From: Candidatus Nomurabacteria bacterium
GTDB lineage: Bacteria; Patescibacteriota; Minisyncoccia; Phycocordibacterales; UBA9973
Reading direction: 5' to 3'
DNA length: 64,000 nucleotides
Assembly (NCBI GenBank): GCA_026396065.1
Contig: JAPLXO010000004.1
Coordinates: 18,387 to 82,386, forward strand
Shown here: positions 5,241 through 26,555 of the stretch, piece after piece
Layout: each line of letters starts with the position of its first letter
Position numbering within the stretch: the stretch's first letter is position 1
Made by a program: the position numbers and the translations under genes
Notes under the pieces: generated by a model
Seen by the model: the letters and a program-made list of their open reading frames with translations, nothing else
The model's database searches: none
Told to the model about the DNA's origin: nothing

Positions 5241-5576
5241 ATGGCGGTAGCAGAAATACAAAACACTGCGACAATTATAAAATATTTGTCGTATGAAATT
5301 TGCCGAATAATTCGGCGTCTAACAAAATACAAAATAAAGGGAGATAAAACCCTAAAACCAGGAGAAATTTGTTTAAATGTTGAAAATCTTGGAGAAACAC
5401 AAGTTTGGATAAGGATAAACAATGGATCACCTGAAGAAAAAGAGGAAATAGTCGAAGAATTAATAGAAACAATAGGTAAACAATTTGGCCCAAAAGCTAC
5501 AATAGAACCTACTGTGAAAACTTTAACAATTTCAATCGATGGCCTAAAAAACAAGCCATCAAAAAAGAAAAATTAG
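5241..5576 (+). CDS. Hypothetical protein (111 aa).
   Basis: Protein-like composition, ATG start, followed by a hairpin plus T-run terminator at ~5594-5625. The overlapping minus-strand ORF 5183..5554 is low-complexity S/F-rich and was rejected. Confidence 0.5.
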   Translation: MAVAEIQNTATIIKYLSYEICRIIRRLTKYKIKGDKTLKPGEICLNVENLGETQVWIRINNGSPEEKEEIVEELIETIGKQFGPKATIEPTVKTLTISIDGLKNKPSKKKN

Positions 5577-5720
5577 TAAAAATTTATCTAAAAAGCCCTG
5601 TTGCAGAAATGTAGCAGGGATTTTTATTTGTAAGATTTGCACATTTGAAACGGCATATATTAGTGTATAATAGAAAGTACAGTCGGTTTATTAGTAATTT
5701 ATTAGTTTAAAAATAATTGT

Positions 5721-6530
5721 ATGAAAAAATATTTAATTTTAAGTTTAGTTTTAGCTATGACTTTAGGTGTATCTGGTGTCACTCGTGCAGAAAATAATGG
5801 TAACGAGCAAGAACAAAATAGAAATCAAGTGCAACAAGATAGAAAAGATATGAGAAATAGTATACAAGATGCTAGAGAAGCATTGCGTGGCGATATTAAA
5901 GGAGAAAGAAGAGATTTAAGAGAAGGTGTAAGACAAGAAAGAGAAGATTTTAAAGATGGGAGAAAGGCTGAATTTGAAGCAATGAAAGCTGATGGAGAAG
6001 TAACTCCAGAAGAAAGAGCTACTTTCAAAGCAGGATTGGAAGCAGATAAAGTAGCACTAAAAGCTGATATAGAAGCTAAAAAATTATCATTTGAAACTGA
6101 AGTAAAAACAAGAAAAGAAGCTTTTAAAAAAGAAACTGAAGAAAAGAAAAGTGCTTGGAGAGAAGAAGCAGAAAAAGTAAGAACAGAAGGTTTAGCAAAT
6201 GCTATTTCAAATATAGAATCAGCTCAAGCAAGACTTTCTCTAAAACTAGTAGAGATGAGTGCAGCAGGGAAAAATGTAACAACAGCACAAACATCACTAG
6301 CTAGTTCAAAAACAAATCTAGAAACAGCAAAGACAAAATTAGCTGCACTTACAATACCTACTACAATGACAGCAGAAGCTTTTGCAGCAATCAAATTAAG
6401 TATAAATGATATAAAAAGTTCATTGATACTATCAAGAGGAGATTTGAACACTGCAATTAAATTAGCAAGATTAGCAAATACTCCTGTAGTACCAGCTTCA
6501 ACGACTACTCCACCCACAACGACTCAATAA
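5721..6530 (+). CDS. Secreted coiled-coil protein (signal peptide, E/K/R-rich, Thr-Pro tail).
   Basis: N-terminal signal MKKYLILSLVLAMTLGVSGVTRA. Highly charged repetitive body. Confidence 0.55.
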   Translation: MKKYLILSLVLAMTLGVSGVTRAENNGNEQEQNRNQVQQDRKDMRNSIQDAREALRGDIKGERRDLREGVRQEREDFKDGRKAEFEAMKADGEVTPEERATFKAGLEADKVALKADIEAKKLSFETEVKTRKEAFKKETEEKKSAWREEAEKVRTEGLANAISNIESAQARLSLKLVEMSAAGKNVTTAQTSLASSKTNLETAKTKLAALTIPTTMTAEAFAAIKLSINDIKSSLILSRGDLNTAIKLARLANTPVVPASTTTPPTTTQ

Positions 6531-9137: not shown

Positions 9138-9223
9138 CCAACGCAATCCTTTTACCAAAAACGGGTTGCGTTTTTGGTTTTAAGGAGGTTGATTTGAAAT
9201 AAAATTAAGTATATTATTGAGTT

Positions 9224-9817
9224 ATGTTAATACCAACCGTTATAGAAAAAAGCCAATTTGGTGAGCGAGCGTATGATATTTACTCTCGTTTACTTCGTGA
9301 TCGTATTATTTTCCTTTCAGGACAAATAGACGACCACACAGCCAATATTATTATTGCTCAATTATTATTTTTAGAAAGTGAAGATCCTAAAAAAGATGTT
9401 TTCCTTTATGTGAACTCCCCTGGTGGCTCTGTCACTTCTACTATGGCCATCGTTGATACTATGAATCACATTCGCCCAGACATCGCGACATTTTGCGTAG
9501 GTATGGCAGCATCAGGTGCAGCTATTGTCCTCTCTGCTGGAAAGAAAGGCAAGAGATATATTTTGCCAAATGCTGAAGTCATGATTCACCAACCTTTAGG
9601 TGGCGTAGAAGGACAAGCCACAGATATCGCCATCTCTGCAAAACACATTTTGAAAACTCGTGATAATTTAAACAAACTCCTTGCGAAAAATACTGGCAAG
9701 ACCCTCGCTCAAATAGAAAAAGATGTCGAACGCGACTTCTACATGGATTCCGACGAAGCCAAAAAATACGGCATCATCGATGAAATAGTAACAAAGTCAA
9801 AAGCGACTCCTAAATAA
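9224..9817 (+). CDS. clpP: ATP-dependent Clp protease proteolytic subunit.
   Basis: 197 aa. Motifs [21 protein letters not shown] and the catalytic-Ser context [14 protein letters not shown], plus His in MIHQPLGG. Confidence 0.9.
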
Positions 9818-9840
9818 AAGAAAAATAAAAAATGAAACTA

Positions 9841-9887
9841 AAAAACTCCCTGCAAAATGAATTGCAGGAAGTTTTTTTATAATTTTT
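9841..9887. terminator. Terminator hairpin ctccctgcaa-aatgaa-ttgcaggaag plus T-run. A near-identical copy lies at 11245-11288.
   Basis: Hairpin plus T tract. Forms a repeat family with 11245-11288. Confidence 0.55.
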
Positions 9888-9892
9888 AAAGA

Positions 9893-10207
9893 TTATTCAT
9901 TAATCAAAACGAAAATCTTATTTAAGTGGGAAAAGAGTTTGTAAAACTCTTCAATGTGAATAGAACTCACTATCACTGAATCTTTTACCTTAATTAAGGC
10001 ACCTTCAAGTGGAAATAAGTTCTGATAAATTATCGTAACCTCTTCTTTATCACCAAACAAAGCGTGTATCTCTACTCCTCTTTGTGGTTTTTCAGTATTT
10101 TTTACGAAATTTATTGCGGATTTAAGTTCTGGGGCATTACTGCCTCCATGCTCTTTTGCTAGTTCCTTAAAACCAGCATAATTTCCTACATCAATTCTTG
10201 TTGTCAT
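9893..10207 (-). CDS. Hypothetical protein (104 aa).
   Basis: ORF with protein-like composition, co-directional with and 24 bp from the downstream gene. Confidence 0.45.
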   Translation of the reverse strand: MTTRIDVGNYAGFKELAKEHGGSNAPELKSAINFVKNTEKPQRGVEIHALFGDKEEVTIIYQNLFPLEGALIKVKDSVIVSSIHIEEFYKLFSHLNKIFVLINE

Positions 10208-10230
10208 GATTTACAAATTTTAATTGTTTA

Positions 10231-11058
10231 CTACTTGTGTATTATTAGTACACCATTTCGCCCCGAAGCAATTTCGTCTTCGTGGTAATACCGGTAATGA
10301 GACCAGTATGAATACTCTCCATCTTCATCTTTATCAGTTGCAGTATCTATGTCGTCATATACAATTTCACTATGTATACCAAACGCTTCGAACTGCGCAC
10401 TAATAATGTTTTTAATGGAAATTCCTCCATGTTTTTTACCCATGGGTACGCTAGCCTCACCATATTTATTGATAAGGTGATCTAAAATAATTTCATTATT
10501 TTTTCCATGCACCTCATCGTGTATGTCATAAATGAAACTGGAATGCCTAATTCCACAATGTAAGGAAATTTCAATGTCTTCGATAGAATACAAAGAAAGA
10601 TCCAGCAAACTGCCGACTACACCGTCATGAATACGTGGTGATGATTCGTCAGTTTTTCCTGTTAGGATTTTTTTCTTATCAATCACAGAATTTAATCCTG
10701 CATGACAAGTAAATACTTCTCCTTTTTCCAAATCACGACAAACTAATGTCGGGCAATCTGCTGACCGGAAAAGCACAGCTGTACCTTTTGGTAACAGCAA
10801 CCCTTCAGTAGGTAACGTCCACAAACTTAAACCATTTCTGAAACCAGCATCTTCGAATGCTTCTGGATCACTCAATGTGCCCAGAAAATCTGAAGTGCTC
10901 GGTAAATAACAGATTGTGATTTTTTCTTTGTTTAACATTCTGTGAATGTCTGTAAGATTCCAAAAACTATTTAACCAGTTTTTTTGTGATCCGAATACGT
11001 AAATACTAGTGTTCGCACTATGTAGCGAAACTTTTGGTAAAATTTCATTGCTGTTCAT
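10231..11058 (-). CDS. YfiH/PgeF-like (DUF152, purine nucleoside phosphorylase / laccase-domain) protein.
   Basis: 275 aa with an ADCPTLV motif and a CHAGL / HCGIRH arrangement resembling the ADCxP...HAGWRG...C motifs of the family. Assignment is moderate. Confidence 0.45.
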   Translation of the reverse strand: MNSNEILPKVSLHSANTSIYVFGSQKNWLNSFWNLTDIHRMLNKEKITICYLPSTSDFLGTLSDPEAFEDAGFRNGLSLWTLPTEGLLLPKGTAVLFRSADCPTLVCRDLEKGEVFTCHAGLNSVIDKKKILTGKTDESSPRIHDGVVGSLLDLSLYSIEDIEISLHCGIRHSSFIYDIHDEVHGKNNEIILDHLINKYGEASVPMGKKHGGISIKNIISAQFEAFGIHSEIVYDDIDTATDKDEDGEYSYWSHYRYYHEDEIASGRNGVLIIHK

Positions 11059-11244
11059 TTTTCAAATATTAAATTGTTTATTATTAATTTAGTTCAAGAT
11101 ATTATCACAATTCCCTATCAAAGGAACACTGATAATATCTCGACTAAAAACAATAAATACAAAATACTTGTCGAAGGGCTTTTTTTATAAAATTACATCA
11201 AATACTACGAAATGTCAATCATTCTAAAAATGCTAATAAAAATG

Positions 11245-11288
11245 AAAAAACTCCCTGCAAAATAAATTGCAGGGAGTTTTAAAAAAAA
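11245..11288. terminator. Terminator hairpin ctccctgcaa-aataaa-ttgcagggag, a copy of the 9841 element.
   Basis: Perfect 10-bp stem and T-run. Immediately downstream of the pepD-like stop on the minus strand. Confidence 0.55.
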
Positions 11289-11302
11289 TATTCTTTGAAG
11301 AA

Positions 11303-12844
11303 TTATATGCTTTTAAGTAAAAGCAATAAATACTTCCAAACGCGTTCACAAGAATCCACGTCTACCCATTCTCCGGTAGTGTGAACATCCCCCATCGTAG
11401 GCCCAAAAGAGATTATTTCAACACCTTTCAACTTGTTTGAAATAACTCCGCACTCAAGTCCTCCATGAGTACTTGTTACAACCGGTTTCGCATCAAACAT
11501 TACTTCCCACTGTTGTACAGCCGTTTTTAACAATGGTGTATCAAACTGTGGAATCCATCCAGGATAACCACTACTAATTTTTGTTTTAGCTCCGTAATAA
11601 TGGAACATGCCTTTAATAATTTCACCAATCCCTTTTAGTTGGGTTTGATTAGAGCTACGGTACATGCAAGAGATAGCGATCTTGCGTCCTTTCATTTCTA
11701 CAATTGCAAGATTGTTTGATGTTTGAACTAACTTTTTATCTTCTTTTTGTTTAGATCTCACCCCGTGTGGTAACTGTATCAGTATTTCTAGAAAATCTTT
11801 GGTGGAGTTTTCGTCCATCATTTTTTCTTTTAGAATAATGCCTACACGTGCAACTTCAGTTTTTATCGGCTCTTTTGGCCACACCATCTTCACAGCTTCA
11901 AACTGTTTTTGTAGTATTTCCAAAAAATTTTCAGCGTCTTCTTCCGGTAGCACTACTGTAGCTTTTGCTGACACCGGTATAGCATTGTCTTTTTCACCAC
12001 CGGAAAAACTTACAAGGTGCATCTTAATTTCACCAAGAGTATTCATGTTGAATTTTCCTAAATCAGTTAGGATTATGGCAAGGTCTTTTATAGCATTCCC
12101 ACGTTCTTTCTGAATTTCAGCCCCTGAGTGACCACCGACAAAGTCGGACAATTCAATATTAAATTTACAATACCCACTAGGAGTATTAATAAATTTTGGT
12201 TTAAACAAACCATTGATTCTTGATCCCCCAGCACAACCCACCGTGAATTCACCCTCCTCTTCGCTATCGAGGTTGATAAATTTTGTACTTTTAATCGAAC
12301 TAAAATCGAATCCAATTGCGCCGACAAGGCCAACTTCTTCGGTAGCAGTGAATAAAAGCTCAAGTGGACCGTGTTCTATGTCGCGGTTAGTCAAAATTTC
12401 CAACATGTAGCTAATAGCTATTCCGTTGTCAGCACCTAAAGTAGTGCCGATTGCCTTTAAAACATTTTCCGTTTTGAAAAAAAGTTCAATAGGGAAAATT
12501 TCTTTTTTTAACCCCTTGTCTTTCACTTCCACCATGTCAATGTGGCCTTGAAGACAAACAGATGGAATATGTTCAAACCCTTTTGAGGCAGGAACCGTAA
12601 CCAAGACATTATTCCACTTGTCTTTGATTACTTCTAATCCATTTTTTTTAGCCAGGTCCTCTATCACCGAGGCGATAGGGCCTTCGTTCCAAGAACCTCT
12701 TGGAGTTGCGCATAAGGTCTCAAAATGACGCCAAAATGGCAGTTTTTTCTTGAGCGGACTCAATAAAACTCCATTTTTTGTAATTACTTCTTCAGCTCTC
12801 GCTGCTTCGGTGTCTTGCACCGGTACTGTGTCTGTTTCTTTCAC
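11303..12844 (-). CDS. pepD: M20-family aminoacyl-histidine dipeptidase (PepD-like).
   Basis: 513 aa. LQGHIDMV (GHxDxV metal ligand) and GADNGIAI motifs. Length matches Xaa-His dipeptidase. Confidence 0.7.
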   Translation of the reverse strand: MKETDTVPVQDTEAARAEEVITKNGVLLSPLKKKLPFWRHFETLCATPRGSWNEGPIASVIEDLAKKNGLEVIKDKWNNVLVTVPASKGFEHIPSVCLQGHIDMVEVKDKGLKKEIFPIELFFKTENVLKAIGTTLGADNGIAISYMLEILTNRDIEHGPLELLFTATEEVGLVGAIGFDFSSIKSTKFINLDSEEEGEFTVGCAGGSRINGLFKPKFINTPSGYCKFNIELSDFVGGHSGAEIQKERGNAIKDLAIILTDLGKFNMNTLGEIKMHLVSFSGGEKDNAIPVSAKATVVLPEEDAENFLEILQKQFEAVKMVWPKEPIKTEVARVGIILKEKMMDENSTKDFLEILIQLPHGVRSKQKEDKKLVQTSNNLAIVEMKGRKIAISCMYRSSNQTQLKGIGEIIKGMFHYYGAKTKISSGYPGWIPQFDTPLLKTAVQQWEVMFDAKPVVTSTHGGLECGVISNKLKGVEIISFGPTMGDVHTTGEWVDVDSCERVWKYLLLLLKSI

Positions 12845-21078: not shown

Positions 21079-21609
21079 TTAGAAAAAATGTTTTAAAAAT
21101 TCTAGTCCATAGAAAAATCCGGACAAGACTACTACCGCCAAAAGATTATTTAAAAATGAACTTAACACAGCCAATATCCAAACTCGGGGAGTTCGAATTC
21201 CATTATATAAATAATATCCATTGCGATAATACAAAACTACTACCATTGGGTCCCAAAACAAAAAGAAAATTAGTAATATATATCTACCTTTGTTTGCCCA
21301 TTTACCAATAGCTTTAGTAATTGGATTTTGTTTTTCCATAGTTGTTGATTGTTCTTGTGCTTCTTTGAGTGCTTCGATTAAAAGCCAGTCGATTTTTATT
21401 ATGTCATAAACAAAAATAGTTATAACAAAAAGAGCAACAGAGCTTCCAAACAAAACTAAAATACTCCACCAAAAACTAAAATGACAAACAATATAAGGAC
21501 ACAAGATCAAACCGTATGATAAATTTATCATCCTATGTATTACAAACCCAATACCGAATATGCCAATTTTTTTAAGGTTTGACAGAACCCAGTTTTTTAA
21601 ATTTTCCAA
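21079..21609 (-). CDS. Polytopic membrane hypothetical protein (176 aa).
   Basis: Several hydrophobic helices. Confidence 0.45.
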   Translation of the reverse strand: MENLKNWVLSNLKKIGIFGIGFVIHRMINLSYGLILCPYIVCHFSFWWSILVLFGSSVALFVITIFVYDIIKIDWLLIEALKEAQEQSTTMEKQNPITKAIGKWANKGRYILLIFFLFWDPMVVVLYYRNGYYLYNGIRTPRVWILAVLSSFLNNLLAVVVLSGFFYGLEFLKHFF

Positions 21610-21752
21610 GGTTCCTCCTTTTTTAATATGTTAAATAACTCTGTAAACTATACAGCCATACTAGCACAATTTTATTTATTTAAAAGAAATATAACTTTTA
21701 TCAAAAAATAAAAAAACCGACTAGAATAAATCTGAGTCGGTTTTTTGATGCG

Positions 21753-21876
21753 TGCACTTGATGGGACTCGAACCCATACACCATGAATCTACACTACTTG
21801 TTTGGACCAAATAGAATAAACCAGGACTTACCCAGATCCTAATTCTGGAGCTCTACCAATTGTTAGCTACAAATGC
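21753..21876 (-). tRNA. Atypical tRNA-Leu(TAG)-like gene, 124 nt, with a ~54-nt insertion between the anticodon stem and the T-arm.
   Basis: By hand: acceptor GCATTTG/CAAGTGC (one G·U pair), D-arm, perfect anticodon stem CCAGA/TCTGG with loop ATTAGGA, canonical T-arm ATGGG-TTCGAGT-CCCAT. The 54 nt between them is far longer than a class II variable arm. Confidence 0.5.
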
Positions 21877-21887
21877 ATTCCATAACA

Positions 21888-22232
21888 CTACTGACGTTTT
21901 TTTAATTTAAAATACTTTACAATTTTAAAAATAAATTCATCAATAGTGAGATACTCGTGTGAAAACTTTTGTTCTTTTGAAATCTTTTTTCCTTCTTTTA
22001 CTTCTTTATCAGTGAAAATACCAAAACCAAAACCTTTTCCTCTAACAGTAGAAAAAATAATGAACTTTGCTTTTGGCTTCTTTTCCATTTCGTAAAAATA
22101 GAAATTAAGGGTTAAATTAAGTTCTTGAAGCTCATCAGGAGCCAAAAACAAACGGAACATTTTCACAACTGTTTCTATTCTTTCTTTGCCCGAAACAGTG
22201 GCAACTGGTGCGTAAGTAAAATAACTTTTCAT
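21888..22232 (-). CDS. Hypothetical protein (114 aa).
   Basis: ORF. No family recognised. Confidence 0.4.
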   Translation of the reverse strand: MKSYFTYAPVATVSGKERIETVVKMFRLFLAPDELQELNLTLNFYFYEMEKKPKAKFIIFSTVRGKGFGFGIFTDKEVKEGKKISKEQKFSHEYLTIDEFIFKIVKYFKLKKRQ

Positions 22233-22391
22233 TGTATATAATTTTTAAAGAACAGCAACATTGCTGTTCTGATATAAAGATATCAACCGTGCAATATATT
22301 TATTTTTTGATATAATGAGTATATTAGAAATATGTTGATATATAAGGCTTTTTTGTAATAAATACAAATTTGTTCGTCTAAAGTAACAAAA

Positions 22392-23180
22392 ATGAACCAA
22401 AAGATTATAGAAAAAATACAAAAAATAGGGCTTTCTGATAAGGAGGCAAGAGTATATTTATACTTACTCGCCTCGCAAGGCGCATACCCCTCAAAGGTAG
22501 CCACTGAAACACGCCTCAATAGAAGCACAGTATATAAAATACTCACTGGGCTCTCAATTAAAGGCCTCGCGACAGAGATTGAGCATGGTAAAAAAATATT
22601 TTACCAGCCAGAATCATTGAATAAATTAAAGAGGTATATGGATTATCAAATTGAACGCGCAGAAAATGCCAAAGAATCTGCGATTAAGATGATGCCTGAG
22701 CTCGAGGAACTCTTTGCAAAAGCAGATAACCCAAAAGTTTCTTTCTATAAAGGAAAAGAACAAGTTATCGAGGCATATCTACGCCATGTGCAAGTCGAAA
22801 AGCCATATAGAATGACTGCTTTTGCGAATGTTCAATACATTACAAAGTTCTTACCGGAGAAAGTATTTAATTTTTACAAGAAAGAAAAGACGCGTATTGG
22901 TATAACTGCACGAGGAGTAACCTCTTCAAGCCCTTACAGTCACCAGTTCCAAAAAGATATCTATAGCAAGGTAAAGAGAAGTATTCGTCCAGAATTACGT
23001 TTTATCCCAGAACAACTTTTCCCATTCTCAGCAGAAATGACGATGTTTGATCATAATAAAGTCTCTATAGTAAAATTCGATGAGCAAAACCCTATCGCTA
23101 TAGTCATAGAAGACAAAATGGTGCATGACATGATGAATATGTTATTTGAATTCGTCTGGAAACGAGCAGAGAAAAAATAA
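22392..23180 (+). CDS. TrmB-family transcriptional regulator (paralog 1).
   Basis: N-terminal wHTH (IGLSDKEARVYLYLLASQGAYPSKVATETRLNRSTVYKIL) typical of TrmB. Shares a C-terminal domain with the 25773 paralog (VSFYKGKEQV / VLFYEGKEGL). Confidence 0.65.
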   Translation: MNQKIIEKIQKIGLSDKEARVYLYLLASQGAYPSKVATETRLNRSTVYKILTGLSIKGLATEIEHGKKIFYQPESLNKLKRYMDYQIERAENAKESAIKMMPELEELFAKADNPKVSFYKGKEQVIEAYLRHVQVEKPYRMTAFANVQYITKFLPEKVFNFYKKEKTRIGITARGVTSSSPYSHQFQKDIYSKVKRSIRPELRFIPEQLFPFSAEMTMFDHNKVSIVKFDEQNPIAIVIEDKMVHDMMNMLFEFVWKRAEKK

Positions 23181-23195
23181 CTTATAGTGGATTTA

Positions 23196-23870
23196 TTAAA
23201 TAGTCATATGGCTTTGTTTCCATTTTGAGACATCAGCCCAGTCAGAAAATTTTTCAACTGAAGTAATAGTAATATTGTAGGCATTTTTCGGATGCTGATC
23301 AAAGAAATATCTATGTAAATCATCAGATATAAGTACTGCTTTCTTATCTAGAGTATCAATATTTAGCTTGTAAATAATTGGATTATACTCACCATTTTCA
23401 ACTATATTTTCTCTTATAAGAAATTTGTTATCAATCGTACAATCGGTGTAAATAATATTTCTATTAACAAACCCGAAACCCAAGTTACAAAAAGATATTT
23501 TTTCTAATCCAGTATCTAAGTCGTATACTTTCGTCTCACGAACAAGTGAAGTTCCAAGGTCAGCAATAATGTATTTATCATCTTGTGTTACGTAATTAAT
23601 GATCATATGATACGCATCAACTTTTTTTAATAAGATAGTTTTATTTGTATTTTTATCTAAAACTTTTACATCATGTAAAATAGAATCGTTGTTTGCATCA
23701 GCATCAACTATTTCTACTGCAAGTCTAGGGTTACCAATGTCTAATGTTTTTGGAGTAATTTTATTTATTTGAATAGCCTGATCTACCACTTTTTTACCAA
23801 AGAAATGCTGGGAAACAATTAATCCCGCAAAAACTAAAATAAGTACGATAATTACTTTTTTCATACACAT
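23196..23870 (-). CDS. Secreted or membrane-anchored hypothetical protein (224 aa).
   Basis: N-terminal signal/TM MCMKKVIIVLILVFAGLIVS. Co-directional with, and downstream of, the Cys-rich gene. Confidence 0.5.
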   Translation of the reverse strand: MCMKKVIIVLILVFAGLIVSQHFFGKKVVDQAIQINKITPKTLDIGNPRLAVEIVDADANNDSILHDVKVLDKNTNKTILLKKVDAYHMIINYVTQDDKYIIADLGTSLVRETKVYDLDTGLEKISFCNLGFGFVNRNIIYTDCTIDNKFLIRENIVENGEYNPIIYKLNIDTLDKKAVLISDDLHRYFFDQHPKNAYNITITSVEKFSDWADVSKWKQSHMTI

Positions 23871-23936
23871 ATAATACCATAGAAGTATGTGGTGAAATAA
23901 AAAACTCTTAATAAATTTATTAAGAGTTTTTTATTG

Positions 23937-25670
23937 CTATGAAACTTCTTGTTGATAGCAGGATTCACAGTAGACTATTTCTTTTCGGTCGGGGGAGTAT
24001 GAAGTTTCAAACTTTACATCACAATGATTTTCACCGTGAATATGATTTTTTAATTCACACATACAAGACCTTGGATAAAGTTTTCTCGGATTTCTTTTTG
24101 CCATACGAGCACGGTGACGACATTCGAAATCTTTGTGTGGAAGTGGAATATTCATTCGCTTATAAAAGTCGAGTTCCATTTTTGTAATACGAAAATTTTT
24201 ATCACACTCTTCACAAACCAGAATTTCATTTAAAAAATTATCATCTACGTTTTCAATACTGTTTGGCACTTCACCTTTTTTAATAGTTTCTTTACCATAG
24301 GTGCCTGTAGTTTTTTCTTGCCAAGAAAATCCACGCTTCAATGCCTCTTCTTTTGTGAGAGGGAATAAATCATGAGCCAATGTTTCGTTATAACCAAAAG
24401 GAGAAATGTCTGGAGAAAAATATTGCCCCCAGGTACCATCTTGTTTTAATTGATTTTCAATTTGTTCTTTTAATTTAAGATATTCTTCTTTTGAATATTC
24501 TTTATTTAGAATCATATTATTTCCTTTTCGAATAGCAGTGCAACCAAAAGAATTTGTCAAGTTATAGCAATTATCACAATAGTCTAAGTCAGTAGAATAG
24601 AAAACGAAAACACAATTTTTAGATCGGCTTAACTGCATTGCACCCATAATATTATAATTAAATTCGCATTTATAATAATAATTATTGCAATCCATACTAT
24701 CTGTAGGATTTTCAGAGTCGGTCATATAAGAACAATTTTTTGCATCATAAGTATCATAGAGCATTACACCTTGATGACAATTATGTAAATAATCTCCAGA
24801 GACATCATGGCATTTTGTTTGGCAAGCAAATTTTCTAACTGTCTCCTTTTTTAATTCTTCAAATTCTTTTTTGGCTTGTTCGATGTTTTCATAACTAGAA
24901 AAAATCTCTGCTTTTTTCTTTTCATATTCTTCTTTAGAATATTTTACATTAAAAATAGCATTTGAAACATTGCGTCCATTCGTGCAGAAAATACAATTGT
25001 TTGAATTGCGCATATTGTAGCAGAAGAGTAAATCACTAGATTCTTGGCATTGCTCAGAATACATACACTTGAAACACTTTCGGCTATCGATAGTCTCATA
25101 GCAAAGCTCTGATTCGTGTAAAAATGCACAGTCCACACAGCCTTTATTTCTCTGTAACAATCTTCCATACAAACAATCTTCATTGTAATCCGCGGCGAAA
25201 ATTAAATAACAATCTTTATTTTCTGCAGAGCCATTTGTATAATCACTGCGGACATTGTTGTGAATCATAATGCCTAGGCGTGGTGTTTCTTTTACTAAAT
25301 CATTAAACTGTTCAAAAAAAGATTTGTTTAAATCATAATTTTTTCCAAAACTTTTTGGATCCCAATTGTCACTCCACCAACATTCGTAACAATATACATT
25401 GTATGGAGACTCTGGCGCATAAACAGAAATAAAATCTTTTTCACAAAGACCACAGGGACGTTTATAAAAAGTCCTTTCATTACGAAAAACCAATCGCCTT
25501 GCCATACGGCAATCAGGGCAGTAGAGAGGTGGCGCAGTTTTCACTTGCTCATAAAAAGTGAGGTCTGCATCTCGTATTTCAAATTCCTTTTCACAACTTT
25601 TACAATTTTTTATAATCATAATTACTAAAGTATATACTAATGCACTATATTTGTCAAGGATATTCGTCAT
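23937..25670 (-). CDS. Cysteine-rich cytoplasmic protein (577 aa, ~55 Cys) with duplicated N- and C-terminal zinc-ribbon modules.
   Basis: N-terminal CKSCEKEFEI...FYEQV...YCPDCR and C-terminal CEECDKNFRI...FYKRMN...CRHR repeat the same pattern. The interior holds dozens of CxxC / NCxFC units. No signal peptide. Confidence 0.6.
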   Translation of the reverse strand: MTNILDKYSALVYTLVIMIIKNCKSCEKEFEIRDADLTFYEQVKTAPPLYCPDCRMARRLVFRNERTFYKRPCGLCEKDFISVYAPESPYNVYCYECWWSDNWDPKSFGKNYDLNKSFFEQFNDLVKETPRLGIMIHNNVRSDYTNGSAENKDCYLIFAADYNEDCLYGRLLQRNKGCVDCAFLHESELCYETIDSRKCFKCMYSEQCQESSDLLFCYNMRNSNNCIFCTNGRNVSNAIFNVKYSKEEYEKKKAEIFSSYENIEQAKKEFEELKKETVRKFACQTKCHDVSGDYLHNCHQGVMLYDTYDAKNCSYMTDSENPTDSMDCNNYYYKCEFNYNIMGAMQLSRSKNCVFVFYSTDLDYCDNCYNLTNSFGCTAIRKGNNMILNKEYSKEEYLKLKEQIENQLKQDGTWGQYFSPDISPFGYNETLAHDLFPLTKEEALKRGFSWQEKTTGTYGKETIKKGEVPNSIENVDDNFLNEILVCEECDKNFRITKMELDFYKRMNIPLPHKDFECRHRARMAKRNPRKLYPRSCMCELKNHIHGENHCDVKFETSYSPDRKEIVYCESCYQQEVS

Positions 25671-25772
25671 AAAGTATCAGAACAAGCTATATATATTAAG
25701 GTATAATAGAAGTATTAAAAATAGTGTGGGATGAGCTTGACACAGATATAGCAAACAATATATACTTAAAAA

Positions 25773-26555
25773 GTGAAAAAGGAATTGTCCCCAATTGAAA
25801 AACAGCTCAAAATAATAGGTCTTTCAGAAAACGAAATCGTGATGTATGTCGCACTCCTTGAACTCGGAAAAGGAACAGTTTCACAAATATCTCGAAAAGC
25901 ATTTTTAAATAGAACGACAGGCTATGATGTTTTGGATAGATTAGTATCTAAAAATCTTATCAGTATTTCTGGTAAAGAACCGAAACAAGAATATGTAGCG
26001 GAATCTCCAGACAATGTCGGAAAATTAATTACCGAAGAACTCGAAAGAAGGCAAAGTGAATTAAACGAAGCAAAAAAAATAATTCCTGAATTAAAATCCA
26101 TTCATAATGTAGTAAACAGACCAAAAGTTTTATTTTACGAAGGAAAGGAAGGTTTGAAACAAGTATATGAAGATACATTAACTTCGACAGAACCAATTCG
26201 AGCATATGCAAGTGTAGAAAATATGCACGCAGGATTACCTGGATATTTCCCTGAATACTATAAACGCCGAGCAAAAAAAGGAATCGCTATTCGTGCTGTG
26301 GTGCCAAATAGTGAAACGGGAAGGGAAAGAAAAATTTTCGACAAGGCAGAAATGCGTGAGACAGCACTCGTGCCGACAGATATGTGCAATTTTATTCCTG
26401 AAATAAATATCTACGATAACAAAGTAATGATCGCATCGTGGCGAGAAAAGCTCGGCATCATTATTGAATCAGCGGAAATTGCCGATGCGATGAAAAAAAT
26501 ATATGAACTCGCTTGGGCAGAGGCAAAGAGATTAGACTCTGAAATTAAAAATTAA
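25773..26555 (+). CDS. TrmB-family transcriptional regulator (paralog 2).
   Basis: wHTH IIGLSENEIVMYVALLELGKGTVSQISRKAFLNRTTGYDVLDRL. GTG start. Confidence 0.65.
   Translation: MKKELSPIEKQLKIIGLSENEIVMYVALLELGKGTVSQISRKAFLNRTTGYDVLDRLVSKNLISISGKEPKQEYVAESPDNVGKLITEELERRQSELNEAKKIIPELKSIHNVVNRPKVLFYEGKEGLKQVYEDTLTSTEPIRAYASVENMHAGLPGYFPEYYKRRAKKGIAIRAVVPNSETGRERKIFDKAEMRETALVPTDMCNFIPEINIYDNKVMIASWREKLGIIIESAEIADAMKKIYELAWAEAKRLDSEIKN

Follow-up and report, generated by a model that had tools for sequence, protein, structure and literature searches.

The stretch of DNA analysed here (the window) comprises 64,000 nt of contig JAPLXO010000004.1 from a Candidatus Nomurabacteria bacterium, a member of the Patescibacteria, and positions are counted from its first letter; genome loci retrieved for comparison carry L-numbers. 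The window contains a reverse-strand gene for a cysteine-rich protein (the Cys gene and Cys protein), which is preceded by the divergently oriented regulator gene TrmB_B and followed by the gene for a 224-residue protein and a second regulator gene, TrmB_A (Table 1). The Cys protein, its duplicated architecture and the linkage of its family to a VirD4/TraD-like ATPase are the subject of this analysis.

An earlier note had described the Cys gene as coding for a 577-residue product with about 55 cysteines in dozens of CxxC and NCxFC units. The open reading frame (ORF) exists in the ORF list, but the product probably has 560 residues, with a true start at ATG 25619, a stop codon at 23937-23939 and the first 17 codons of the called ORF untranslated. 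The start was moved because homologues begin at the residue equivalent to M18 of the called ORF in the family alignment, because the promoter scan places a sigma-70-type promoter with 11 of 12 matching positions within these 17 codons, and because both ATG 25619 and the promoter align in upstream alignments of orthologous loci. The first observation is thus real but overstated, as the product contains 37 cysteines, 10 CxxC motifs and a single NCxFC. Cysteine accounts for 6.4% of the residues, the highest value among the 53 ORFs of the window and about tenfold their median of 0.65%. As had been noted, there is no signal peptide: the N-terminus lacks a hydrophobic segment in either start version. 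The protein is cytoplasmic, and it is the single copy of its family in the window.

Table 1. Features of the locus, with positions in the 64,000-nt window (aa, residues of the 560-residue Cys protein where a range is given; pLDDT, predicted local distance difference test).
Feature	Position	Strand	Basis or remark
TrmB_B, 260 aa, GTG start	25773..26555	+	Pfam TrmB 51.3 bits; divergent conserved partner
TrmB_B sigma-70-type promoter	25737..25766	+	TTGACA, 18 nt, TATACT
Inter-promoter region with two inverted conserved boxes	25668..25727		phylogenetic footprint, 23 distinct regions
Cys-gene sigma-70-type promoter	25629..25657	-	TTGACA at 25657, 17 nt, TATACT ending at 25629; scan 11/12
Cys-rich ORF as first called	23937..25670	-	ORF list
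Cys-rich gene, revised start (probable)	23937..25619	-	ATG 25619, 560 aa
N-terminal double zinc finger, aa 1-95	25335..25619	-	Cys conservation, zf_Tbcl match, pLDDT >90
Beta-solenoid 1 plus helix, aa 121-262	24834..25259	-	Cys ladder, period 3/9/12 residues
Beta-solenoid 2 plus helix, aa 263-396	24432..24833	-	hhalign, solenoid 1 vs solenoid 2
Acidic helical linker domain, aa 397-465	24225..24431	-	near-invariant G, P, Y-N-E, P, W
C-terminal double zinc finger, aa 466-560	23940..24224	-	duplicate of N-terminal module; hhalign, alignment
Intrinsic-terminator-like hairpin	23896..23935	-	directly 3' of Cys stop codon
224-aa protein, one N-terminal signal/anchor segment	23196..23870	-	ORF list, hydrophobicity
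TrmB_A, 262 aa	22392..23180	+	Pfam TrmB 49.8 bits; not a conserved neighbour
tRNA-like gene, 124 nt	21753..21876	-	Rfam tRNA 41.8 bits (gathering 29)

The Cys protein has a pseudo-symmetric layout, in which a double zinc finger is followed by two solenoid-plus-helix units, an acidic helical domain and a further double zinc finger. The structure prediction and profile comparison proposed in the earlier note gave an AlphaFold2 model (pLDDT 82.9, predicted template modelling score 0.84) with these two double fingers and two solenoids. In the N-terminal module, the first finger (ZnA) follows the pattern CxxC-x24-CxxC, resembles zf_Tbcl and leads into an Arg-rich helix, and the second finger (ZnB) follows the pattern CxxC-x17-CxxC, resembles zf_Tbcl_2 and leads into a conserved WWSDxWDP tail. 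The first finger of the C-terminal module is a C-C-(H)-C variant (HKDFECRH) in the window clade, where residue 497 is Asp and invariant His residues lie nearby in the alignment. The terminal repeats had been reported as duplicates of about 60 residues; comparison of family sub-alignments with hhalign confirms them over a larger span of about 80-90 residues (residues 3-82 vs 466-556, 99.7% probability, E 6e-26). A central internal duplication, which had been overlooked, relates residues 121-239 to residues 269-387 (99.9% probability, E 4.5e-33). Solenoid 1 carries the conserved motif N-x-K-Y-S-K-E-E-Y, and variability within the family peaks in solenoid 2, where distant members average 27% identity to the window protein.

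The earlier reading of the termini as zinc ribbons is supported in that they are predicted zinc-binding modules, with conserved CxxC ligands and matches to zf_Tbcl and zf_Tbcl_2. Four terminal Cys4-type sites, one of them C-C-H-C-like, are conserved over 150 representatives of 50%-identity clusters, the set on which all cysteine conservation was measured. Conservation is 89-99% at the first ligand position of every terminal finger and 51-99% at the others (C6/C9/C34/C37, 94-98%; C56/59/77/80, 62-89%; C469/472/(497)/500, 66-99%; C519/533/551/554, 98-99%). At E<0.01, zf_Tbcl matches 23 and zf_Tbcl_2 18 of 57 diverse family members, a few of which exceed the Pfam cut-offs (26.6 and 25.2 bits).

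The search for homologues and their neighbourhoods, likewise proposed in the earlier note, uncovered a large Patescibacteria-wide family. The 90%-clustered database yielded 3519 matches, the best 120 of which (66-83% identity) are all unnamed or 'hypothetical', and at the level of 50%-identity clusters the family comprises 3657 (E<1e-3), 2678 (E<1e-10) or 1424 (E<1e-30) clusters, aligned end to end. All 80 genome loci retrieved belong to Patescibacteria (Nomura-, Paceibacterota, Staskawicz-, Peri-, Peregrini- and Kerfeldbacteria), and many genomes hold several old tandem paralogues with 34-54% identity. A search of viral contigs detected no relative. Scans of the Cys protein against Pfam, NCBIfam, PHROGs and PADLOC returned nothing above cut-offs, PDB sequence searches (single and profile) returned chance-level matches only, and a Foldseek search of the model against the PDB returned nothing at E<1. 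An N-terminal finger profile searched for domain fusions retrieved only fragments of the same family, and nothing relevant was found in the literature on the zf_Tbcl and zf_Tbcl_2 names, DUF8128 or TrmB in Patescibacteria. The Cys protein is outside every characterised family, and the claim that it has no recognisable enzymatic motif holds across Pfam, NCBIfam, PDB, PHROGs and PADLOC, with no enzymatic signature or characterised homologue.

Two individual cases stand out among the retrieved loci. In L083 (Peribacteria, CAZDFH010000001.1), genetic code 11 splits the family array into many ORFs of 60-390 residues, and either the array is pseudogenised or stop codons are read differently there. 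L006 and L007 lie on the same contig (JBAXPX010000005.1), and this genome therefore has two window-type copies (72-74% identity), one in an Xer-Exo-MurI-Cys-CCA context and the other behind PNPase - DksA-like - ComM/YifB, a context that also occurs in L010, L015 and L034.

A recurrent neighbour of the family arrays is a soluble ATPase that exceeds the Pfam cut-offs for VirD4/TraD-type domains (TrwB_AAD_bind, 39-41 bits, cut-off 20.5; T4SS-DNA_transf, 29.6 bits, cut-off 20.1; TraG-D_C, 28.1 bits, cut-off 22) and for DUF87 and that matches TrwB in the PDB (E 1.9e-4). In L060, L077 and L079, the ATPase gene immediately precedes family genes on the same strand; in L075 it immediately follows a fragment of a family gene, and in L019, L073 and L074 it is located nearby. 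The ATPase has 6046 relatives at E<1e-10, the best 120 of which share 72-94% identity and come from many candidate phyla. The association was examined in reverse, from the ATPase side, using seven loci (L084-L090) that were selected only for long contigs. All seven loci, from seven Patescibacteria lineages, contain one to at least four full-length family genes (hmmsearch scores 480-745) immediately downstream of the ATPase on the same strand. The cluster has the order SecD - SecF - sigma70_r4/HARE-HTH protein - DUF8128 - ~170-residue protein - ATPase - family genes (L084, 553..7449, for example); in L088, a GIY-YIG ORF is inserted before the ATPase.

The DUF8128 protein and the ~170-residue protein each contain two N-terminal transmembrane (TM) segments, whereas the 482-residue ATPase contains none, and L019 encodes a 935-residue fusion of a DUF8128-like region with a VirD4-like ATPase (9178..11985). 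The TM segments in the two preceding genes, the TM-less ATPase and the fusion together suggest a coupling protein that is split into a separate membrane part (DUF8128) and a motor. Window-type copies (66-73% identity) are found inside ATPase clusters in L060, L019 and L077. The ATPase-adjacent copies do not constitute one subfamily, an idea that was ruled out by their 32-45% identity to one another. The linkage to the ATPase module is the strongest contextual signal for the family and the most informative lead. A survey published in 2025 counted 5713 VirD4-like type IV coupling proteins (T4CPs) in 2918 Patescibacteria genomes, only 148 of them near virB4; relaxases are almost absent in Patescibacteria, and the role of the VirD4-like T4CPs is open (PMC12102498).

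Upstream of the Cys gene, the regulator TrmB_B is the conserved partner in the close clade. Both regulators of the window exceed the Pfam TrmB (PF01978) cut-off of 25.6 bits and are 29% identical to each other over their full length (E 8e-28), in agreement with the claim that two TrmB paralogues, one divergent and one convergent, flank the locus. A TrmB_B orthologue (61-76% identity) is positioned divergently upstream in 36 of ~65 orthologous loci, and the close-clade synteny reads Xer - ExoIII - (MurI) - (TrmB_B) - Cys gene - CCA-adding enzyme. Beyond the close clade, the proximity of TrmB genes cannot be told apart statistically from background (4 of 72 near vs 1 of 42 far, p 0.39); TrmB-like genes occur inside distant arrays in L073, L074, L080 and L082, and a second pair occurs in L021/L029. 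The Pfam scan detected no C-terminal sugar-binding domain in either regulator, and the NCBIfam equivalogs for TrmB, TrmBL1 and TrmBL2 score 16-28 bits vs cut-offs of 500-650. The only PDB match of TrmB_A is a weak one to TrmBL2 (5bpd; residues 5-119, E 1.3e-3).

Across 23 distinct orthologous regions, the back-to-back promoters of the Cys gene and TrmB_B keep their -35 elements at a fixed span of 91 nt. On the Cys side, the -35 element is invariant and the -10 element conserved in orthologous loci. The -10 elements end 9 nt before ATG 25619 and 6 nt before GTG 25773, and both starts lack a Shine-Dalgarno sequence. Because the -10 elements lie only 6-9 nt from the start codons, both divergent mRNAs appear to be leaderless or nearly so. 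A conserved ATTTTG-type box is located ~8-10 nt upstream of each -35 element. The box consensus is ACAAAATT beside the trmB -35 and TxTTTTG ~10 nt upstream of the Cys-side -35, and the window versions are ACACTATT (25720-25727) and CTTTATG (25668-25674). These boxes are candidate sites, as putative TrmB_B operators or UP-like elements. The motif search of the divergent promoter region that had been advised for a TrmB operator thus revealed conserved boxes and a fixed geometry, with the operator role as a candidate only. A TTTGT-N12-ACAAA dyad was rejected as the TrmB operator, as it consists largely of the -35 hexamer and the upstream ATTTTG box at both promoters. The Cys gene is the first gene behind the divergent promoter in the window and likewise in 8 of the 28 loci (29%) that carry this promoter.

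The slot between the divergent promoter and the Cys gene is occupied by genes for proteins of 69-349 residues from several unrelated families in L001, L004, L005, L008, L011, L013 and L016, as well as in L023-L025, L030, L031, L039, L053, L062 and L066. In L002, which is outside the 28-locus count, the slot gene (5559..5921) encodes a Cro/C1-type helix-turn-helix protein. In loci whose divergent promoter does not immediately precede the Cys gene (L008, L011, L016, L030, L036, L039, L064 and others), a conserved palindrome, CTTTATAAAG, lies ~35-45 nt before the Cys ATG and is followed by a TG-extended -10-like TATTAT. This element may be a second promoter or operator.

In the proposed explanation, the Cys protein is stabilised by zinc and acts as adaptor to, or client of, a split VirD4/TraD-like ATPase module, with TrmB in control of the window copy; we assign this explanation a probability of roughly 0.45. 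The protein would form a rigid, zinc-stabilised body that serves the ATPase as an adaptor or client. Its two equivalent terminal double fingers would act as binding ends, for protein or nucleic acid, and the variable solenoids, of which solenoid 2 is the least conserved, would give each paralogue specific surfaces. TrmB_B would control the stand-alone window copy and its own transcription through sites that overlap or adjoin the two -35 elements. The Cys mRNA, leaderless or nearly so, would end at the hairpin behind the stop codon and would be independent of the signal-anchor gene. A wider extension of this proposal, which we consider doubtful, is that the orphan VirD4/TraD-like ATPases have their missing partners in this family, whose zinc-finger/beta-solenoid members would be a new protein class recognised by the split, membrane-tethered ATPase and would act as paralogue-specific adaptors, DNA-pilot proteins or translocated effectors in place of the absent relaxases, with TrmB-type regulators choosing which copies are expressed.

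Several observations weigh against the adaptor or client explanation. No ATPase, DUF8128 or related gene was found within the 64-kb window, and the window copy is therefore linked to the ATPase by family membership only. The seven ATPase loci are related by descent and not fully independent, and co-localisation of the family and the ATPase is not equal to interaction. The central part of the model reaches a pLDDT of only 60-75, and the zinc fingers of the window sequence fall under the Pfam cut-offs (17.6 bits vs the gathering cut-off of 24 for zf_Tbcl). On the regulatory side, the Cys gene does not lie directly behind the divergent promoter in 20 of the 28 loci, where the two are separated by a variable small gene (16 loci) or by a gap of 250-710 nt without a called gene (4 loci). 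Because of these 20 loci, the divergent promoter is conserved but not dedicated to the Cys gene.

The terminal modules also allow the protein to be read as a stand-alone nucleic-acid binder that has no functional tie to the ATPase, uses its solenoids as a spacer and grips DNA or RNA at two points through the Arg-rich helices after the fingers (CRxxRRLxxRNER, CRHRARMAKRNPRK). Binding to nucleic acids is common among treble-clef fingers. Conservation within the protein is highest in the terminal modules, which are mildly basic (family isoelectric point 7.6 for the N-terminal and 8.7 for the C-terminal module), with the rest acidic; however, the basic charge is small. Moreover, T4CP-type ATPases act on DNA, and DNA-binding partners would fit such an ATPase too. 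We regard independent nucleic-acid binding as rather unlikely.

The family genes could alternatively encode translocated effectors or pilot proteins that the ATPase hands to the Patescibacteria type IV secretion system for delivery into the host cell. In conjugative systems, the T4CP gene usually adjoins the gene of its substrate, the relaxase, and relaxases are nearly absent in Patescibacteria (PMC12102498); the one to at least four diverged paralogues (34-54% identity) right behind the ATPase resemble an effector repertoire. Classical secretion signals of type IV systems are, however, unstructured and positively charged, a description from which the C-terminus of the family departs in both respects. 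The C-terminus is a folded zinc finger whose last CxxC stops a median of 6 residues short of the chain end, and the last 25 residues have a mean net charge of -2.1 in the family and of -2 in the window protein. Furthermore, the identities of the window-type orthologue (63-83%) are on a par with those of its housekeeping neighbours (55-76%), the majority of T4CP genes lie at a distance from virB4, and in Southlakia the T4CP was not essential. Delivery as an effector is accordingly an unlikely role.

The earlier note had also considered a metal-storage or redox protein, whose central CxxC units would bind Zn, Fe or Fe-S or cycle between thiol and disulfide. The 37 cysteines with CxxC units every 9-12 residues, the CxxCxxCxxC run found in 101 of the 150 representatives and the anaerobic host lineage speak for this idea. 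The run is, however, absent from the window protein, as are radical-SAM and ferredoxin motifs (CxxxCxxC or CxxCxxCxxxC(P)), which occur in 6 and 5 of the 150 members, respectively. The central cysteines recur at every third residue within runs and show an overall period of 9-12 residues; their columns are 30-93% conserved, with Ser, Val, Leu, Ile and Thr as alternatives; no co-varying pair was detected among them (phi >= 0.5). Because they are variable, replaced by these residues and free of co-variation, the central cysteines are best described, from their substitution pattern, as putative core-ladder residues of the solenoids rather than obligate metal ligands. The fold also resembles beta-solenoid cores, including Cys-rich antifreeze helices, and the Cys content of 6.4% and the many aromatic residues (conserved Tyr, Phe and Trp throughout) are unlike those of metallothioneins. 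Given conserved ligands at the termini and core-type cysteines in the centre, about four structural zinc ions per chain would be expected. The idea is weakened in that only the terminal cysteines are highly conserved, and a role in metal storage or redox chemistry is decidedly unlikely.

A left-handed beta-helix enzyme decorated with zinc fingers (acyltransferase or gamma-carbonic-anhydrase-like) is highly improbable, since scans of 57 family members against Pfam and NCBIfam revealed neither Hexapep (PF00132) nor any other enzymatic match, the curli solenoid, which is the best match in structure, is non-enzymatic, and the conserved polar residues recur with the repeat, as structural positions would.

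Downstream of the Cys gene, the terminator-like hairpin consists of an 18-bp stem and a U-run (free energy -17.3 kcal/mol, z -9.3, 0 of 200 shuffles). The signal-peptide protein that had been described as a co-operonic, secreted neighbour does contain one N-terminal hydrophobic segment, but its co-transcription with the Cys gene is doubtful because of this strong hairpin between the two genes. Nor is the neighbour conserved: of 83 loci, only L023 contains a homologue, and there it does not adjoin the Cys gene. The gene for the 224-residue protein probably has its own predicted promoter (TGgTATTAT). A relative of TrmB_A was found only in L021. The idea of a dedicated TrmB-regulated module applies in part to TrmB_B, with its 36 of ~65 loci and 91-nt geometry, and not to TrmB_A or the signal-anchor protein.

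TrmB_A and the 224-residue protein belong to a stretch of ~2.9 kb (21079..23870) that also contains orf176 (4 TM segments), a tRNA-like gene and orf114. Because the Cys and CCA-adding enzyme genes that flank this stretch are only 0-50 bp apart in many orthologous loci (e.g. L009, L028, L037 and L045), it looks like a genome-specific insertion. The tRNA-like gene has the anticodon loop UAG (Leu) and ~51 nt in the variable-arm position and was not called by ARAGORN; lying within the separating stretch, it could mark an insertion site. The divergent intergenic region of orf114 and TrmB_A contains a perfect 10-bp inverted repeat with a 2-nt spacer (22249..22270; AGAACAGCAA CA TTGCTGTTCT), and a perfect TTTGT-N12-ACAAA dyad (22369..22390) ends 1 nt before the TrmB_A ATG. 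Both the repeat and the dyad are candidate operators for TrmB_A.

Patescibacteria represent a large share of bacterial diversity and depend on host cells, and they encode thousands of VirD4-like coupling ATPases of unknown role and substrates (PMC12102498). The family described here, with >1400 diverged clusters and every domain kept in all paralogues, is a concrete candidate substrate or partner of these ATPases, and its array position gives a first testable clue to the targets of the orphan enzymes. Its architecture, in which two double zinc fingers flank two Cys-ladder solenoids, is new and well predicted and has no solved relative. In addition, TrmB-type regulation in bacteria could be studied in a simple setting at the divergent promoter pair, which is conserved, back to back and probably leaderless.

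Comparison with known systems places the Cys protein beside several groups of proteins. Unlike metallothioneins, the Cys protein does not pair an extreme Cys content and conserved ligand sets with a scarcity of aromatic residues. The solenoids are similar to antifreeze proteins (Tenebrio, 1ezg; spruce budworm, 1m8n) and curli CsgA (8c50) at the fold level only, with 5-7% identity. Antifreeze and curli proteins are secreted, and the former are disulfide-bonded, whereas the Cys protein is cytoplasmic and contains two solenoids, each with a helix, and zinc fingers at both ends. LIM domains of CRP1 and CRP2 (1ctl and 1cxx), which are protein-binding units, are likewise tandems of two small zinc fingers. 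They show a local resemblance to the second finger (W-x-x-x-C ... x-V-Y-C-x-x-C-Y) and a weak, non-significant match to the C-terminal module (E 0.11). The LIM consensus, C-x2-C-x16-23-H-x2-C-x2-C-x2-C-x16-21-C-x2-(C/H/D), has contiguous fingers; in contrast, the spacing in the Cys protein is CxxC-x24-CxxC, 18 residues and CxxC-x17-CxxC.

The regulators share the N-terminal winged helix (PF01978) with TrmB and TrmBL2 of Thermococcales, and their length of ~260 residues is that of the short TrmBL2 type. Unlike TrmB and TrmBL1, they have no detected C-terminal sugar-binding domain, and their host is bacterial. With respect to T4CPs (TrwB, TraD and VirD4), the family genes lie directly downstream of the ATPase, as relaxase and adaptor genes flank T4CP genes. 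In contrast to a classical T4CP, the ATPase is soluble, its presumed membrane part is encoded apart, and it scores far under the NCBIfam cut-offs; unlike T4CP partners, family members lack relaxase, HUH and known adaptor domains. At the domain level, the fingers fall marginally within zf_Tbcl (PF13451) and zf_Tbcl_2 (PF23477), two Pfam entries annotated as 'probable treble clef' without known function. The first finger of each module resembles zf_Tbcl and the second C-terminal finger resembles zf_Tbcl_2, with a shared CxxC...CxxC ligand pattern. Unlike plain zf_Tbcl entries, the Cys protein contains a fixed finger tandem that is present twice and flanks ~370 residues of solenoid.

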